From Escherichia coli (GTDB lineage Bacteria; Pseudomonadota; Gammaproteobacteria; Enterobacterales; Enterobacteriaceae), in the NCBI RefSeq assembly GCF_017348835.2, contig NZ_CP072317.1: 64,000 bases of DNA; one strand, written 5' to 3'. A model generated the notes under the pieces. The model worked only from the letters and a program-made list of their open reading frames with translations. It did not search any database and was not told where the DNA came from. Both the position numbers and the translations under genes were made by a program. This document shows positions 1 to 40,824 of the stretch, piece after piece. The first letter of the stretch is position 1, and each line of letters starts with the position of its first letter.

Positions 1-3000
1 GTTTCCGGTTACCTTCCGTGCCTTCAAGCGCGATGGCAAAGGTTTCACTCGCCCCCTGCGCACCGTGGGCGGTGATGGCATAAGCCAGGTCAATATGTTG
101 CTCTGCCCGCTCCTGGCCGGGGCGAATCACCCGGGTCTGCTGTCCGTCTGACAACGTGACACTGTCACCGGAAACCGCTGTCACCGTCCAGACGCTGTTG
201 GCCACATAACCGCGCTCCCGGTCACTCTTCGTGAAGCGCATCCGGTCGCCGGTCCCCACCCGGATTTTGTCCGGGGTGTACAGTGTGACACCTTCAGCCA
301 CCGCCTCCCGGGGCGAAATCAGCCGCGTGTTACCTTCCGCATCCTCCAGGGTTATCAGCCCGTCATCCTTGCTGATACCGGCAATCCGGTGATACACACT
401 ATCCACCAGGGCAAGGGCATCCGGGTTATTCTCCCAGGTGGAGAGACGACGCAGCTCCCCGTCACGTATATTCGCTGTGTTCAGGACAGGCACCATGACC
501 TGCTCTTTCCCCAGCTCACCGGCCTTTTCCCGTGCATCATGAATCATGCTGTTCAGTACGCGCCGGTCCTCATTCAGGTGCGTGACAATCAGCGTCTGCT
601 CCCGTGCTTCCGGTGTCCTGCCGGTATAGTCGCGGACAATGGCTTCATACAGTGTCATGGGGACATCCGGAAAAGTCTCACCTTTCAGCATCGCCTTCTG
701 CTGCGCTTCTGCCAGTTTCGCTTCCTGGCTGTGACTGAACTCCGTCACGGAGTGCTCCGGTGCCCATGCGCCCTCCTGACGGGGAACCTGAGACGGTTTC
801 ACACTCTCAAGCCCGGACAGTGCCCTTTCCACATCCCGGTTAATCAGGCTGTATACCGCCTCCCGCAGTTCCGGCGTCTGACGCACAATCTCCTTCATGA
901 TGACCACATCGGCAGCACTGCGCGTCTGCTGGAGACGGAAAGGCTGACCGGGCGCGATGGCCTGCAGCTGGTCCGTGTCACCACTGGCCACGGCACGACC
1001 GCCACCGGCCGCAATCAGGGCGTATGCCCGTGCCATGTCGGTATTGCCCACCATTGAGCTCTCATCGAGCAGGAACAGCGTGTTGCTGAAATCCGGCGTT
1101 TCTCCGCTGCGCTGCTGCAGCTGCGTGTCATGCAGAAAGGACGCCAGCGTCTGTGCATCCACGCCGGCGCTGCGCATCTCACCGACCGCACGGTGCGTGG
1201 GCCCCAGCCCCACAACTCGGGGACGCTCACTCGCCGGCAGCATGTTCACGGCTGACATCACCGCCCGGAACTGTGTGGTCTTACCCACACCGGCATAACC
1301 CTGTACCACCGTGAAACGGTCGGACGTTTCCAGTATCATACGGGTGGCGGCACGCTGTCCCGACGTTAACGTCTCCATGAGTTCGCCGGGTACTCTCTCC
1401 ATCAGCGGCGTGACCGCCTCCTTACCTTCGAGAATATGGCGAAGAATACTTTTTTCTGCCTCATACGACGCACGGGAAACCAGCAGGCCTGTGCCATAGC
1501 CTTTTGCCACATCCACATACAGTAAGTCACCGCGTTTTATCTGCGCATTGATTTCCCCTCCCAGTTCAGTAAAACCGGTTCCTTCTGCAGCAAACGACTT
1601 CGCCTCTGTCAGCAGGTCCACCATGCTGAAGGCCAGGTTTTTACTTTCCAGCACAGGAAGGGCCAGATGAATGGCCTGCTGTGCCGGCGTGTGCAGCCCG
1701 GTTTTCTGCAGACTGATAGCGGTTTCCAGCGATGTCTCACCGGCCCGCGCCTTTATCTGCTCAGAAACCACCGTAAAGGAGGGATGGCGGGCAAGTTTTT
1801 CCGCAGTACGGGTTTCATCCAGTGAGGAATACAGCCGGACATCACGACCGCTGCGGGCCAGACCGTTCAGGGTGGCGTTGTCCATTGCCATCTGTGTGAC
1901 GGAGGCAAACACCGTCGCACTGTCACTGACGGAATGCCCGGGCGTTTCCACCCAGCCGTTCTCCAGCTTCAGTGCCGTGAACGGTGAATCAGCCACAGGC
2001 AGGGTGGCCGGTTCAGCCCGCCCCGGCACAACAACCGTCATCGCATCTTCACTGACGGATGCCACCTGCAGGCGGTCACCGCCGGAGACGCGGAGTCCGG
2101 GAATTTTCCCTGTCACCCTCAGTCGCTCGCCGTCTGCCACCGGCATTTTTTCCGGCCGGAACAGCGACCAGCTGCTGTCCAGGGAGGAAATACGCACCAC
2201 CTGCGTTTCGCCCTGCGCATCCCGCAGGGTCAGGCTGTGACTCTGCGCCGTCACCCGGTCGATAACATAGCGGTCATGACTGCGTGTCTCCGGGTTCCAC
2301 TGCTCCATCACCATCCCCGGTCGGTACATATCCCGCAGATAACGGCTCCGGCTGTCCAGCCAGACCGGTGACAGGGCGGTCATGGTCACCTCCGGGTGTC
2401 CGAGCACGCCCTGTGTTTTCAGCTCACTGCGAATGGCCTGTGTCAGTATGGCCTGTTCCCGTACCCCGCTGACCTGTGCCACGCTCTCTTCTCCGGCTTT
2501 CACGCTGGCCGCAAAATCTCCGGCCAGCCGGTCATAGCGGACATTCCGGTCCGGTTCACTGATGATGGTTGCCGGTCGCTGTTCTCCGCCCTGCCAGCGA
2601 TACGTGTTCACCCCGGCATCCTTCATGGCCATCAGCGCACTGCCTGTACCGGTTCGCTGCCCGCTGTCGGTTATCAGGACCTGTACGTTATGACGTGCGG
2701 CACCATCCAGCAGGGTTAACGTCTCTTTCAGGGAGAGTTTTTCGCCCTGGTCGACGATAACAGTACTGCCCGGCGTGAAGACCATGCCCTCCTGCAGCTG
2801 ACGACGTCCGGTTATCAGCTCACCGGACAGCCGTTCATCCTGCTTCAGGTTCATCTGCGAGCGACGGTCAGCAGCGATAATCTGCACCTCCCGCCCCTGC
2901 TCCCGGGCCATCATGACCAGTTCAGCCACCCGCTCACGCTGCCCGGCTGCACCGCCCTGCCCGGACACAATGGCCAGCGACGGACGGTCCTGTGCCAGAA

Positions 3001-4273
3001 CACTGACCGCATCGCTGTAACCAGCCGTCCGGGGGACACTTTTCTCCGGATGTACGGTCACCCGGTTCTGTTTCATGATGTCACGACTGAGTGCCCGGAC
3101 GGACAGCTCATCGAGCACATGAATTCCTGATGTGAACAGCCCCTTCTCACGGTCGAGGGGGATAAGCTGCTCACGGCTGATGGCCTCATCGATACCGGCG
3201 CGTGCCCGTTCAATCACACCATTTTCCGGCGGCAGTATGCCGACCGTCCTGGCCAGCACGTCCGTATACGTGAACTGCACTTTTCGTTCACTTAATCCGG
3301 CAATCGCCTGTGTCACCGCCTGCTGCACATCCGGCCCGTCCTGTGAAGCAGGCCCGGGCGCCTGCGTGCGGATCTCCGCACGCTGATCCGCCGCGTCACG
3401 ATATGCCCGGATGTCGAACCCGGTTTCCTTCAGCGTCTGCATCCATTCAGCCATTCTGACTTCAGGATCGACGTGCTGTTTGGATTTTCGCGTATCCAGT
3501 GCCGCCACATCCCGGGATTTCAGCGAGGCGTCTTCACCGACGGCCTCCCTGATAGCCTGTGAACGACTGGAAAAGGCCTCCACCGGTACGCCCGGCATCT
3601 CCCACATACCGTGCTTACCGACCACTTCGGTTTCATAACCCAGCGCCTCAACGCGCTGACGTAACTCACTCTGATATATTTTCCCGAACGCAATCCGGTT
3701 CGCTAGCACGTTCTCGGAAAATCCGGTTTTCCCCACTTTGTCACTGCTCAGTGTCTTCCACTCGCCGTTATGCTGCGTGACATTAGCCACCACTACATGC
3801 GTGTGTAACTGTGGGTCCTGATCGCGACTGGTGTCATGGTTAAACAGTGCCATCACCAGATTACCGGTCAGCACCGTTTCTGACTGTCCGTCCGTCATCA
3901 CCCGTGTGGAAGCCAGCGCCTCCACCTGACGGACAGCAAAATCCACGGCCTGGTTATGTGCATCAATAAGACGTTTATCCCCCCCGAGCATGGCCATCAT
4001 GGAGACACTTTTGGGGGCGGAGAAGGTCAGGTCGTAGCCGGGACGATGCTTATTACTGCCATCCTGCATGCGGCTTAAATCCGCCCCGTCCGGCAGCCTG
4101 CCCTCCAGAAGACGGGTAAAAACATCCTTATCGACGCTGCCCTGCAGCCCAAGCTGTTCAGCCCCCTGACCAGCCCAGCGTTCTCCCATGCTGCCCAGCA
4201 CATAGTAATTATCCTTGTCGGTGTAATAGTTTCCGGCACTGCCTGCCGATTTAACAACGCTGAAACTCAACAT
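1..4273 (-). CDS. traI: TraI relaxase/helicase, 5' portion only (3' end lies beyond window start)
   Basis: Reverse-complement translation from ATG at 4273-4271 gives [24 protein letters not shown], the F-like TraI N-terminus; ATGA overlap with traD stop; absent from ORF track because no stop inside window; frame not checked base-by-base to position 1. Confidence 0.85.
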   Translation of the reverse strand, partial: MLSFSVVKSAGSAGNYYTDKDNYYVLGSMGERWAGQGAEQLGLQGSVDKDVFTRLLEGRLPDGADLSRMQDGSNKHRPGYDLTFSAPKSVSMMAMLGGDKRLIDAHNQAVDFAVRQVEALASTRVMTDGQSETVLTGNLVMALFNHDTSRDQDPQLHTHVVVANVTQHNGEWKTLSSDKVGKTGFSENVLANRIAFGKIYQSELRQRVEALGYETEVVGKHGMWEMPGVPVEAFSSRSQAIREAVGEDASLKSRDVAALDTRKSKQHVDPEVRMAEWMQTLKETGFDIRAYRDAADQRAEIRTQAPGPASQDGPDVQQAVTQAIAGLSERKVQFTYTDVLARTVGILPPENGVIERARAGIDEAISREQLIPLDREKGLFTSGIHVLDELSVRALSRDIMKQNRVTVHPEKSVPRTAGYSDAVSVLAQDRPSLAIVSGQGGAAGQRERVAELVMMAREQGREVQIIAADRRSQMNLKQDERLSGELITGRRQLQEGMVFTPGSTVIVDQGEKLSLKETLTLLDGAARHNVQVLITDSGQRTGTGSALMAMKDAGVNTYRWQGGEQRPATIISEPDRNVRYDRLAGDFAASVKAGEESVAQVSGVREQAILTQAIRSELKTQGVLGHPEVTMTALSPVWLDSRSRYLRDMYRPGMVMEQWNPETRSHDRYVIDRVTAQSHSLTLRDAQGETQVVRISSLDSSWSLFRPEKMPVADGERLRVTGKIPGLRVSGGDRLQVASVSEDAMTVVVPGRAEPATLPVADSPFTALKLENGWVETPGHSVSDSATVFASVTQMAMDNATLNGLARSGRDVRLYSSLDETRTAEKLARHPSFTVVSEQIKARAGETSLETAISLQKTGLHTPAQQAIHLALPVLESKNLAFSMVDLLTEAKSFAAEGTGFTELGGEINAQIKRGDLLYVDVAKGYGTGLLVSRASYEAEKSILRHILEGKEAVTPLMERVPGELMETLTSGQRAATRMILETSDRFTVVQGYAGVGKTTQFRAVMSAVNMLPASERPRVVGLGPTHRAVGEMRSAGVDAQTLASFLHDTQLQQRSGETPDFSNTLFLLDESSMVGNTDMARAYALIAAGGGRAVASGDTDQLQAIAPGQPFRLQQTRSAADVVIMKEIVRQTPELREAVYSLINRDVERALSGLESVKPSQVPRQEGAWAPEHSVTEFSHSQEAKLAEAQQKAMLKGETFPDVPMTLYEAIVRDYTGRTPEAREQTLIVTHLNEDRRVLNSMIHDAREKAGELGKEQVMVPVLNTANIRDGELRRLSTWENNPDALALVDSVYHRIAGISKDDGLITLEDAEGNTRLISPREAVAEGVTLYTPDKIRVGTGDRMRFTKSDRERGYVANSVWTVTAVSGDSVTLSDGQQTRVIRPGQERAEQHIDLAYAITAHGAQGASETFAIALEGTEGNRK

Positions 4274-6525
4274 CAGAAATCATCTCCCGGCTCAACATCC
4301 TCCCCGCGCTCCCGGTGCACATTAATGTTCACCTCTTCACGACGCTGCATATGCTGCTGGATGTCCGGATGATTTTCCTGTTGCCATGCCTCATAAGCGG
4401 CCATATCCACCACTTCACCGGATTCACTGATCCCGGGTGGCAGTTGCTGTTCCATCTCTTCTTCCGGTTTCATTTTCAGCTCCTGCTCGATCCCCCCTGC
4501 CGGAACACTCACACCTGCATCTGACTTCTTATCATTGATGACAGAAGACACTGGCTGTTGTGGCTGTTGTGGCTGTTGTGGCTGTTGTGGCTGTTGTGGC
4601 TGTTGTGGCTGTTGTGGCTGTTGTGGCTGTTGTGGCTGTTGTGGCTGTTGTGGCTGTTGTGGCTGTTGTGGCTGTTCAGCCTGAGTCACATCTTCTCCGG
4701 AGGCAACCTCCGGTTCAAAGAGGCTGGCCATCTGACGACCTTCTGCTTCCCTTGCGGCAAGTACGGCACTCAGACGGTTCTCCATTTCCGGGTTGATGTC
4801 ACGCGGAATAAACTCCGGAGCGACCTTCGGTCGTGCCTGATATTTCAGAGAGAGTTTGACTGCCGGATACGGTCCGGGCAGAGTGACATAGCAGGTCAGA
4901 TCCGGCAGAGACTGAATGTCGGAATAACTGACCAGCGTCTGACGCTCCATATCCTTACCGGTCGATACCCCGTCACGTACCGGGTCAGCACCGTAGGAAT
5001 ACTGCTCGCTGGCTTTCAGGTGCTCTTTCTCACCAATCTCACCGGCAGCGAACTCTGCAATCTTATGGCTCGGGGAACGGAAAAAAGCACGGGTGTTCAT
5101 GACGTCAAACAGCGTGGCCGCCGCTTTCTCACCGTAGATATCTTCCAGCTGGGCATAGGACTGGATACCAAACACATAACAGCCACCGAACTTACGGGCT
5201 TCCGGCAGGATCTCCACCAGATCCGGCAGTTTGTGTAACGTGGGTAACTCATCACAGAAAAACCACACACGACGGTTACGGTTTTCTCCCATTGCCAGCA
5301 GACCACGAATGGCAATGGACAGCCACATGGAGATCACAGGCTTCAGGGAGGCATGGGTGTCGGCGTTCGACGAAATAAACAGCCAGCCGTTTTTCTGATC
5401 TTCCCGGACACCACGCATCCAGTCACGGATGGTGAAGGGATCACCGTTATGCTCAATCCCCTGCAGGTAACGGATGGCTTTCACGTAGTTGGTCAGCACA
5501 GCACGGATGGAAATCGCCGTTTTCTCAATTTTCTCTTCCACCAGGTTGGCCGCCGGTGAATTACGCAGGAAGGTACGCAGTTTTTCAATTTTGATGGAAA
5601 GCAGTGTGTCCACCAGTTTGCTGTAGCTGCGGTTGGGGTCATTACGCATCAGGTACGCCGCTTCCGCAAAAATGGTACGTCCTGAACCCTGCCAGAACGG
5701 GTCCTCTTTTGTACCCATAGGGATCAGCGTGTTCGCGGTATTATCAAAATCCGGCTGTGTCAGGCACTCCTTCCACAAATCCCATGCGGCACAGCGGGCA
5801 TCCAGCGGATTCAGGATTTTATCGATGGAGGGATCATAGTAACTTTTAACAAATTCCCCTGAACGGTCATAAATCACCACCATATCACCGCGCTGACGGG
5901 CATAGTTGGCCAGACGACGGATAACCTCCGACTTACCGGCCCCGACCGTGCCGTGCAGACAGAAGTTCTGGATTTCGGAATCCCGGATAATCGGCAGGTC
6001 GCCAATCCGGATATCGGAGTCCTTGCCGTCTTTTTTCAGCATCCGGGCAACGTCTTTCGGATTGTCTGTCAGCTGACGACCACCTGTGACTTCATTTTCG
6101 CTCTGTTGTTTACCCTGACGCCCCAGAATCCAGGAGACAACAAAGAAGGTGATCAGGCAAATAACCAGGGCCACGACAGACGCCAGAACGAATGCAGACC
6201 ATAGCTGCTCTCCGCACCAGATCATATATTTATCATGCAGTACCTGGGCAGCGTTCATCCGGAAGGTTTTGCCGTAATACTGGATCTCATAGACCGGCTG
6301 GGATTTTATTAAATCCCGCATGCCTTCCAGTGACGTACACCACCAGTAAATACAGCCGTTGATAAACGTCTGCCAGCTTATTTTTACCCATAAGACCAGA
6401 CCAATGAGGATCCAGAAAAAAATAAACAGGCAGTAAAGCATGATATTGGCGATCTGGCTGAACATGCGGATACGCATGGACGCAATCTGACCGCCCTGGG
6501 TCATATCCTTTGCGTTAAAACTCAT
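4273..6525 (-). CDS. traD: TraD type IV coupling protein
   Basis: 750-aa ORF, near-identical to F TraD as recalled, Walker [10 protein letters not shown]-terminal QQP repeat and acidic tail. Confidence 0.97.
4554..4675. repeat. 9-bp tandem repeat (CTGTTGTGG, about 13 copies) encoding the (QQP)n tract of TraD
   Basis: Directly visible perfect tandem repeat; in-frame with traD. Confidence 0.95.
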
Positions 6526-31098: not shown

Positions 31099-31482
31099 TT
31101 ATTCCTCATCATTTTTTGGAAAAAATCGTTCCATCTCAGATGACACCTTCTCACGAATATCTTCAACCATATTGGCATATTCAAACTTTGGATTCCCGGA
31201 GACATGGGGACTTAGAGACTCAATACCCAAAATTTTCGCTACTGATGACTGTGTTTTTACAACACATTCAAGAAGAAGTTTATTAAACTCTGTCTGATTA
31301 AACGCAGACTCTTTACGCTCCATCTGAGCCTCATATACACGAAGCCCCAGTTCAAGAAGCATTGAAGCTGTTCCCGAAACACTTATATCTTTATCTCTTG
31401 CCCCCTCCTGACGACGCTGTTCAACTATCGCATTTACTTTATCATAGACATCATTACTGATATACAAAATTACTCTGGCCAT
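31099..31482 (-). CDS. traM: TraM relaxosome accessory protein
   Basis: ORF 31099..31584; start set at MARVILYISND to give 127 aa as in F TraM. Confidence 0.9.
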   Translation of the reverse strand: MARVILYISNDVYDKVNAIVEQRRQEGARDKDISVSGTASMLLELGLRVYEAQMERKESAFNQTEFNKLLLECVVKTQSSVAKILGIESLSPHVSGNPKFEYANMVEDIREKVSSEMERFFPKNDEE

Positions 31483-39430: not shown

Positions 39431-40110
39431 TTCAGCCCCCATCATCTGTTGAGTTTCGGGAGCCGCGGTTTTGACGTTTTGCGGGGACCTGCCTTTTGTT
39501 CCCTCCGGTATTCACCATCACCTGTTTGAGAACCTTCGCCGCAAGGGGCATCACTGCCACGGCCTGACGCACCTGTCCTGGGCAGAACGCAAAATTTTTT
39601 ACCGGGTTTTGGGTAAAAAATTTTGTGGGCTGTTCATTTACCCTGGACAGTCAGTGCGGCAGGTTGTGGCTGTCTATGCCCCCGGCGACAGGGGCTTAAA
39701 CAGGTGAATGGCACCGGACAGAACAACGGGCAGGGACCCGCCGCAACGACGTGAAGCGCGGTTTGCGAAACGGCGTTGCTCCTTACATCCCGGCGTCTTT
39801 TGCCGGGATGCCGGGAGCGCAGGCCACGGCGCGACAAGGGTGGCGCGACCGTTCCGGTCGCTGCAAACCCGGGTTTTTGCGTCAGGGATGGAAGCCCGCC
39901 AGGGCGGAGACAGCTTCGCTGGCTCCGTTCACGACAGCCCGCCCCGCCAGGGGGACGCCCGGAAAAGGCATAAGCAGGAGAACAACAAAACAGACAATAA
40001 TCAGGGCAGTAGAAAAAAGAAGAACAGTAGCAGTAGCAGTAGCAGTAGCAGTAGCAGTAGCAGTAGCAGTAGCAGTAGCAGGAACAACAACATCATCAGT
40101 AACAGACAAA
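39431..40110 (+). promoter_or_regulatory. Frpo/ssi-like repeat unit, copy 2, immediately 5' of ssb
   Basis: Near-identical to copy 1; ssb start about 25 bp away. Confidence 0.65.
40026..40081. repeat. hexanucleotide microsatellite (CAGTAG, about 9 copies)
   Basis: Perfect tandem repeat at the distal end of repeat copy 2; copy 1 carries an 18-bp-type imperfect repeat at the same place. Confidence 0.9.
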
Positions 40111-40260: not shown

Positions 40261-40824
40261 TCAGGCACGCAAACGAATAATCATCGTCGGGACATCGGTA
40301 TAAGCAAACGTGCCGCGCGGCAGCTCCTCGCGGACGTCAGAAAACGGTAACAGCTTCTCCTGCTGGCGTGGCCCGTTGAGACAGACGGCAACCAGAACGC
40401 CCCCCGGACGCAACAGGGAAAAAGCCCGCAGGATATGCCGGATATCCTGCCCGTGACTGAACGGCGGATTCATAATGATCCGGCTGTAATACTGCACCGA
40501 CTGCCATTCCATGAAGTCGCCACACTGTACCCTGACACCGTTAAAATTTTCCCGCAGATACCGGACCAGCCCGCTGTTAATCTCCACCGCATCACACATG
40601 GCCTCCGGCGCGGTATCCCGAATCGCCCGCAGTATGGCCCCGGTGCCGGCAGAGGGTTCCAGAATGTGATCACGGTTGCTGATTTCCGCCAGCGTCACCA
40701 GGCGATCACAGATCGGGGCAGGACTCACAAAAAGCTGAGATTCAGCCCGGATTTCAGCAACCGGCGCGGCGTTATCCAGCCTTGCGCGCATCAGCCGGAT
40801 ACGTTCTCTTAACTGACTGTGCAT
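40261..40824 (-). CDS. orphan SAM-dependent DNA methyltransferase (NPPF motif)
   Basis: 187-aa ORF with SAM-binding EPSAGTG-like motif and NPPF; no adjacent restriction gene. Confidence 0.65.
   Translation of the reverse strand: MHSQLRERIRLMRARLDNAAPVAEIRAESQLFVSPAPICDRLVTLAEISNRDHILEPSAGTGAILRAIRDTAPEAMCDAVEINSGLVRYLRENFNGVRVQCGDFMEWQSVQYYSRIIMNPPFSHGQDIRHILRAFSLLRPGGVLVAVCLNGPRQQEKLLPFSDVREELPRGTFAYTDVPTMIIRLRA

Follow-up and report, generated by a model that had tools for sequence, protein, structure and literature searches.

We describe here a perfect 9-bp tandem repeat in traD, the coupling-protein gene of a pHK23a-like IncF plasmid, as found in 64,000 nucleotides of Escherichia coli contig NZ_CP072317.1; this whole stretch is called the window below, and all positions refer to it. 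The repeat encodes a run of Gln-Gln-Pro (QQP) units in the C-terminal part of TraD. The protein gates the transfer of IncF plasmids, which, in E. coli and Klebsiella, are the main carriers of genes for extended-spectrum beta-lactamases and of other resistance genes. The features of the locus are the following.

4273..6525, minus strand: traD, encoding a 750-aa F-type type IV coupling protein, R100-type allele (from its translation, Pfam, NCBIfam, TrwB structures, the pHK23a annotation and R100-identical flanks).
4717..4791, minus strand: conserved helix, aa 579-603, assigned by DSSP on the AlphaFold2 model, with R592, L602 and F603 conserved.
4498..4716, minus strand: hypervariable spacer, aa 604-676, predicted to be disordered; 41 of its 73 aa are the QQP tract (AlphaFold2 and alignment of 34 homologues).
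4552..4676, coding on the minus strand: perfect 9-bp tandem array, unit TGGCTGTTG on the plus strand and CAACAGCCA on the coding strand, 13 full units and a partial one.
4552..4674, minus strand: QQP coding tract, TraD aa 618-658, QP(QQP)13, 41 residues.
4276..4497, minus strand: conserved C-terminal module, aa 677-750, which begins with GGIEQEL and ends with EPGDDF (alignment).
4276..4320, minus strand: last 15 residues, aa 736-750, with the acidic tail and the discrimination motif, the same as the F-type tail.

Tandem Repeats Finder delimits the array at 4552..4676, with a period of 9, 13.9 copies, 100% matches, no indels and a score of 250. This makes it the highest-scoring tandem array of the 64-kb window; the runner-up, a hexamer array at 40025..40081, scores 114. 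An exact-match regular expression gives 13 full units at 4552..4668 and then a partial unit, and the raw sequence is uninterrupted. The original prediction, which spoke of about 13 perfect 9-bp repeats at 4554-4675, was thus right in its count and accurate to within 1-2 bases in its coordinates. A perfectly periodic tract of 125 bases cannot have arisen by chance. On the minus strand each unit reads as the codons CAA CAG CCA, and within the 750-aa open reading frame a ten-residue flank is followed by (QQP)13 and then by VSSVINDKK.

The copy number of the window is not peculiar to one assembly. Its first 25 kb are 100% identical to many IncF plasmids, pHK23a included; spans of exactly 25,000 bases at 100% identity are found in at least 14 independent public plasmid records, and these records therefore imply the 13-unit array. 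For pHK23a itself, which has 1 mismatch to the window in 37,000 bases, the 13-unit array was confirmed directly. Since the same state recurs in at least 14 records, the copy number is reproducible and is no one-off assembly artefact.

That the gene is traD, as had been called from the letters of the DNA, is confirmed. Its product scores 1676 bits against NCBIfam PRK13700 (cutoff 1221) and 835 bits against TIGR02759 (cutoff 521). Pfam places TraD_N at aa 32-128 and TrwB_AAD_bind at aa 172-561, and also finds TraG-D_C; aa 161-573 align with the TrwB structures 1e9r/1gl6 (E=2e-47). The Walker A motif GAGKS lies at aa 195-199, and its G197, K198 and S199 are invariant in the alignment described below. 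With the pHK23a annotation mapped onto the window, the order of genes is traT, a 738-bp open reading frame, traD and traI. Matches to the family models, N-terminal membrane and TrwB-like domains, an acidic tail accompanied by a traM gene and a position before traI together mark the protein as an F-type TraD. The 875 bp around the array are 100% identical to those of R100 and NR1, hence the allele is of the R100 type.

We aligned 34 F-type TraDs with 59-98% identity to the window protein, and AlphaFold2 was run on that alignment. The C-terminal extension falls into four parts: a helix, a variable spacer, a conserved module and the acidic tail. The helix (aa 579-603) exits the ATPase body and is the N-terminal anchor of the spacer. 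The segment between F603 and G677, two positions that are invariant or near-invariant, is unconserved among the 34 proteins and measures 24-95 aa (median 55.5), of which 61-88% is P/Q/A/T/S/G/V. With 73 aa the spacer of the window is longer than the 40 aa of the F-type protein, and it lies within this natural range. The module that follows is near-constant in size (69-74 aa in the eight homologues checked) and carries the motifs GG-EQEL, LPPGI-E-GE-VDM-AYEAWQ and QRREEVNIN. In the AlphaFold2 model the ATPase body has mostly good confidence; the predicted local distance difference test score (pLDDT) is below 50 at aa 604-695, and at aa 610-690, the whole QQP tract included, it is 24-33 and no secondary structure appears. 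The model thus predicts that the QQP tract lies in a disordered spacer. Runs of QP/QQP, or at least Q/P-rich runs, occupy the same position of TraD in relatives down to ~73% identity, and in more distant TraDs, of which the Klebsiella type is an example, this place is taken by Pro/Ala/Thr-rich spacers without repeats.

These results agree with the initial placement of the tract in the C-terminal part of TraD, since it falls within the C-terminal extension, at aa 618-658. We disagree with the further statement that it lies just upstream of the acidic tail: the protein goes on for another 92 residues after the tract, and ~84 of them, among which is the conserved module of ~74 aa, come before the tail that contacts TraM. 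Pfam also offers an Amelogenin domain (PF02948) at aa 614-666 (4528-4686, minus strand); we rejected it, as the match reaches 24.5 bits against a cutoff of 27 and reflects Gln/Pro composition only. Automated annotation could nevertheless adopt this sub-threshold match as a false domain label.

How variable the tract is among plasmids was determined by megablast with positions 4273-4900 as the query. The search gave 3,976 plasmid records; among 5,426 complete E. coli genomes it gave 3,211 records, which come from 2,802 genomes, so that about one in two of these genomes has this traD region. Protein clusters at 90% identity merge the repeat variants and are unusable for a distribution of copy numbers, so counts were derived from matched BLAST spans, and 12 span-based records were verified by direct reading of the array. 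For all alleles together we took evenly spaced rows of the ranking, 57 + 58 of them usable. Of these 115 rows, 114 have a span whose length departs from that of the query by a whole multiple of 9. They correspond to roughly 1-23 units (median 7), and 16 of the 115 rows have 13 or more; span-derived counts may be off by one in F-type alleles, where the flank has an extra 9 bp.

A second sample was restricted to the allele of the window. The two flanks were joined to make the query, so that no copy number was favoured, and the best 60 records were used, all of which have flanks 100% identical over 875 bp. Fifty-eight of the 60 have in-frame arrays; their copy numbers take 16 distinct values between 3 and 30 units (median 11), and the Nei diversity is 0.92, although a joined-flank query may under-represent arrays of 2 units or fewer. 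Thirteen units are present in six records, and 27/58 plasmids have 13 or more, which rules out 13 units as an unusual state.

Direct reading of arrays adds two points. In the R100-type allele, with the unit CAACAGCCA, we read 1, 3, 6, 8, 9, 10, 13 (the window), 15, 16, 18, 23 and 30 QQP units after the leading QP, and in the F-type allele, with the unit CAACAGCCG, 1, 6, 9 and 12 units. All 13 of the 13 in-frame multi-unit arrays that were read are pure, and each of the two allele classes has its own unit. Pure, allele-specific units over such wide ranges of copy number mean that turnover within an allele is faster than point substitution. Individual comparisons make the same point: across 4,511 bp of flanking sequence, neither pSTEC-O145-12E70-1 (8 units) nor pBb17FEP-TC-CTX (6 units) shows a single mismatch to the window. 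R100 (NC_002134.1) and NR1 (NC_009133.1), which share the unit and the 875-bp flanks of the window, have 9 and 10 units, respectively, against its 13, and their traD flanks are identical to one another. We take R100 and NR1 to be two laboratory lines of one plasmid; if they are, the difference is either a one-unit change within laboratory history or a difference in sequencing. Two sister pOXA-1207 plasmids likewise differ by an in-frame 9-bp deletion in traD, which is among their few differences (bioRxiv 10.1101/2025.07.31.667721). Given 16 copy numbers at identical flanks, we infer for the population that the array mutates far faster than the DNA around it.

The original prediction that the repeat number varies among F-like TraDs is therefore borne out, with 1-30 units read directly here and a published precedent (PMC3245843). 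Its description of the tract as "expanded" stands in one sense and fails in another. The tract is indeed expanded in comparison with F (one QQP after QP), R1 (23 residues) and R100 (9 units), but not within its own allele, where the median is 11 and the range 3-30.

The partner of the TraD tail is encoded in the same window.

31099..31482, minus strand: traM, relaxosome partner of the TraD tail (pHK23a annotation; match to PDB 2g7o/3d8a, E=2.5e-39).

In F, the TraD tail binds a groove on TraM tetramers at the origin of transfer, oriT (PMC3159463, PMC7555446); the contact is made by the last ~8 residues of TraD (PMC7555446, PMC10939261), and the presence of several flexible TraD tails gives an avidity effect (PMC3159463). 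Deletion experiments attribute to the last 15 residues a 10^4-10^5-fold stimulation of cognate transfer (PMC10939261). The last 15 residues of the window protein are identical to those of the 717-aa F-type TraD, and they match the tail in the F TraD tail-TraM complex (PDB 3D8A; Lu et al. 2008; Wong et al. 2011, PMC3159463). Residues 58-127 of the TraM of the window are identical at 68/70 positions to the F TraM tetramerisation domain that was crystallised with the TraD tail (2g7o/3d8a). Given these two matches, the docking chemistry should equal that established for F, and, judged from the sequences, TraM docking by the TraD of the window should proceed as in F. The structure 3D8A covers the extreme tail only; the QQP-bearing spacer has never been resolved, and F has one QQP unit.

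In our opinion, the tract is probably a minisatellite that is prone to slippage, always in frame, and located within a flexible, length-tolerant tether, where it evolves nearly neutrally. According to this proposal, identical CAACAGCCA units would misalign at replication by slipped-strand mispairing, as the pattern of the arrays suggests, and whole units would be gained or lost, which would leave the reading frame and the downstream TraM-binding module intact. QP(QQP)n would be part of an intrinsically disordered, proline-punctuated spacer, and this spacer would tie the ~74-residue C-terminal module, with its EPGDDF end, to the ATPase body of TraD, a membrane-bound hexamer. The tail may then capture TraM tetramers bound at oriT, and in this way dock the relaxosome at the secretion channel, as is established for F. 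If the spacer needs only flexibility and enough length, the copy number can drift rapidly and nearly neutrally, and the 13-unit state of the window would be one ordinary value of that drift. A simple polymer estimate, with scaling constants for intrinsically disordered proteins, gives a root-mean-square reach that rises from ~7.3 to ~8.4 nm between 1 and 13 units (a gain of ~1 nm), while the contour length rises from ~40 to ~53 nm.

Several considerations weigh against this proposal. The neutrality of the drift is something that we infer. The lasting purity of the arrays in two allele classes could reflect selection for mutability. Slippage itself is read from the pattern, and unequal recombination is an alternative to it. 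Further, the QQP motif is not equally long in the TraD of F and of R1, and variation in TraD has been proposed to lie behind their different requirements for R17 phage (Lang et al. 2011, PMC3245843). Thirteen units are kept in at least 14 pHK23a-like records from both E. coli and Klebsiella; the array is fast-changing but not chaotic, and not every isolate differs. Finally, the copy numbers of public assemblies may hold some errors.

The best surviving rival sees in the tract an adaptive tuning knob, and extends the suggestion of the original prediction that repeat number could tune relaxosome coupling. The length of the tether would be selected through its reach or specificity towards TraM at oriT, or through susceptibility to male-specific RNA phages, which need TraD, and the pure repeat would serve as an evolvability device. 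We regard this as unlikely. The very high diversity at constant flanks speaks in its favour, as do the pure arrays in two allele classes; however, purity is expected from rapid slippage alone, and copy numbers spread over 3-30 with no sharp optimum. The Q/P-rich tracts found at this site in TraDs with as little as ~73% identity also fit a selected feature, yet more distant TraDs function with spacers of 24-95 aa that have no repeats. Deletion data do ascribe a role to the C-terminal domain without its last 15 residues, of ~10-30-fold on cognate transfer and ~10^3-fold for a non-cognate substrate (PMC10939261), but the change in reach predicted for the tract is small (~1 nm). The phage argument comes from Lang et al. 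2011, who speculate that TraD variation together with phage pressure explains the differences between F and R1 in R17 infection. Our full-text literature searches found no functional test of repeat length and no experiment that ties copy number to a phenotype; they returned only that paper and the one incidental report of a 9-bp traD deletion, and among the papers searched "TraD" and "QQP" occur together in Lang et al. 2011 only, which raises a role of TraD variation and does not test it. The published domain deletions and the natural spacers of 24-95 aa suggest that any tuning effect of tract length would be modest, and nothing in the sequence data requires adaptive tuning.

A stronger form of the same idea is that the pure array is kept for the sake of evolvability: steps of one unit would re-tune relaxosome docking or substrate promiscuity, or allow escape from R17/MS2, and rare out-of-frame slips would give a tail-less TraD with relaxed specificity. 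We consider this improbable.

It could also be argued that an assembly or sequencing artefact lies behind the copy number of the window and the variation in the databases. The representative of a cluster of 596-aa "partial TraD" sequences does end at the start of the tract, and 3 of about 175 records have out-of-frame lengths. However, the 125-bp array is shorter than typical reads, multiples of 9 are found in 114/115 and 58/60 records from complete plasmids, and at least 14 independent records agree on 13 units. Variation among F, R1 and R100 is, moreover, already present in Sanger-era sequences (PMC3245843; R100 and NR1). An artefact as the general explanation is thus very improbable. We give even less credence to a DNA- or RNA-level element (a regulatory or recombination site) or an antisense gene that would act other than via TraD, for although a 226-aa plus-strand open reading frame with a TTG start (4558..5238) crosses the repeat, promoter-like sites in 4000-5300 number 1 against 0.7 in the shuffled expectation and terminator-like sites 1 against 1.1, the gene whose frame the tract keeps is conserved and intact, and ~98% frame-preserving lengths point to a constraint on the minus-strand frame that is consistent with a need for the downstream TraD module. 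That antisense reading frame starts within the array as a tryptophan/leucine repeat; it is a by-product of the array and almost certainly no gene.

The frame is kept in about 98% of the records inspected, and the three exceptions deserve a short description. In pSJ_82 (NZ_CP011065.1) 4 bases are lost in the second unit. In pHK09 (NC_019071.1) a direct duplication of 112 bp abuts the array, with its junction at a repeat-like TGGCAGTTGCTGTT motif about 100 bp away; apparently, the repeat was misaligned with TGGCAGTTGCTGTT. Both are out of frame, and traD is unannotated in both. One further record, from the all-allele sample, differs by 98 bp. The variants of pSJ_82 and pHK09 may be real pseudogenes or sequencing errors; if out-of-frame variants are real, the TraM-binding module is lost in them.

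The 596-aa "partial TraD" cluster mentioned above is large, with 4,849 member sequences, and its representative ends ...EVASGEGVTQA, exactly at the start of the QQP tract (window ~4677). This suggests that short-read draft assemblies commonly break at the QQP repeat, and that the copy number is lost there.

The feature as such is not new. It is the same as the QQP motif of F-like TraD in Fig. 8 of Lang et al. 2011 (Mol Microbiol 82:1071, PMC3245843), where QQP repeats are described in a TraD C-terminal extension of ~150-200 aa, between the nucleotide-binding domain and the TraM-interaction region, and where the motif is QPQQP in F and 23 residues long in R1 (PMC3245843). The TraD of the window likewise has sequential repeats on the N-terminal side of the TraM-interaction region, with a length that differs among plasmids. 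At 41 residues its tract is longer than those of F, R1 and R100, and it is within the 3-30 units of its own allele. Hence the QQP feature was already known, and the 13-unit value is an ordinary one. What we add is quantitative: how far the array is polymorphic at identical flanks, the pure allele-specific units, and the finding that the spacer around the tract varies throughout the family.

Two other systems can be compared with it. The (Glu-Pro)n/(Lys-Pro)n spacer of TonB is a proline-punctuated, extended linker that leads from a membrane anchor to a distal binding module, and changes in its length are tolerated. The resemblance to the QQP tract is an analogy only; the sequences are unrelated, and the TonB spacer, which is charged, is not encoded by a polymorphic DNA minisatellite. 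Contingency loci, such as the phase-variable genes of Neisseria and Haemophilus, likewise have a perfect short tandem repeat in coding sequence, with a copy number that changes much faster than by point mutation. Unlike in those loci, the 9-bp unit of traD gives no on/off switch, and the frame is broken only by rare events that do not involve whole units (about 2%). We considered an on/off phase-variation locus and rejected it, given that 114/115 and 58/60 length variants are in frame and that no promoter signal rises above chance.

If repeat length did alter the efficiency or specificity of transfer, the tract would be a fast-evolving modifier of the spread of resistance; our results suggest instead that it is mostly a tolerated, drifting linker. 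It may still be of modest practical use. With a diversity of 0.92 at identical flanks it offers a polymorphic variable-number tandem repeat marker within the plasmid, which could separate epidemic plasmids that are otherwise identical. It is also an apparent break-point of short-read assemblies, and out-of-frame events there can yield traD pseudogenes. The natural length variants, in turn, could be used to study the length of the tether in coupling-protein function.

Some observations on the rest of the window remain to be reported. The gene downstream of traD is cut by the window edge.

1..4273, minus strand: 5' part of traI (relaxase/helicase), which overlaps the traD stop by one base (pHK23a annotation).

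The window is collinear with pHK23a to ~42.8 kb and differs from it beyond that point (~42777-43319 and 55600-64000). It is without the ~2.3-kb group II intron (ltrA) of pHK23a, and its IS26-flanked resistance region is rearranged; the window is thus derived not from pHK23a but from one of its near relatives.

At 40025-40081, in the leading region, there is a further perfect microsatellite, (CAGTAG)9.5, located between a gene for a class I S-adenosylmethionine-dependent methyltransferase (40261..40824, minus strand) and ssb. There is no credible open reading frame across 40025-40081, only low-complexity poly-Leu, Thr-Ala, Val-Ala and poly-Ser frames. The copy number of (CAGTAG)n also varies among plasmids, since many spans (477 to 549, the query being 501) depart from the query length by a multiple of 6 bp, and this repeat, with 9 units in the window and 8 in pHK23a, makes the first length difference between the two.

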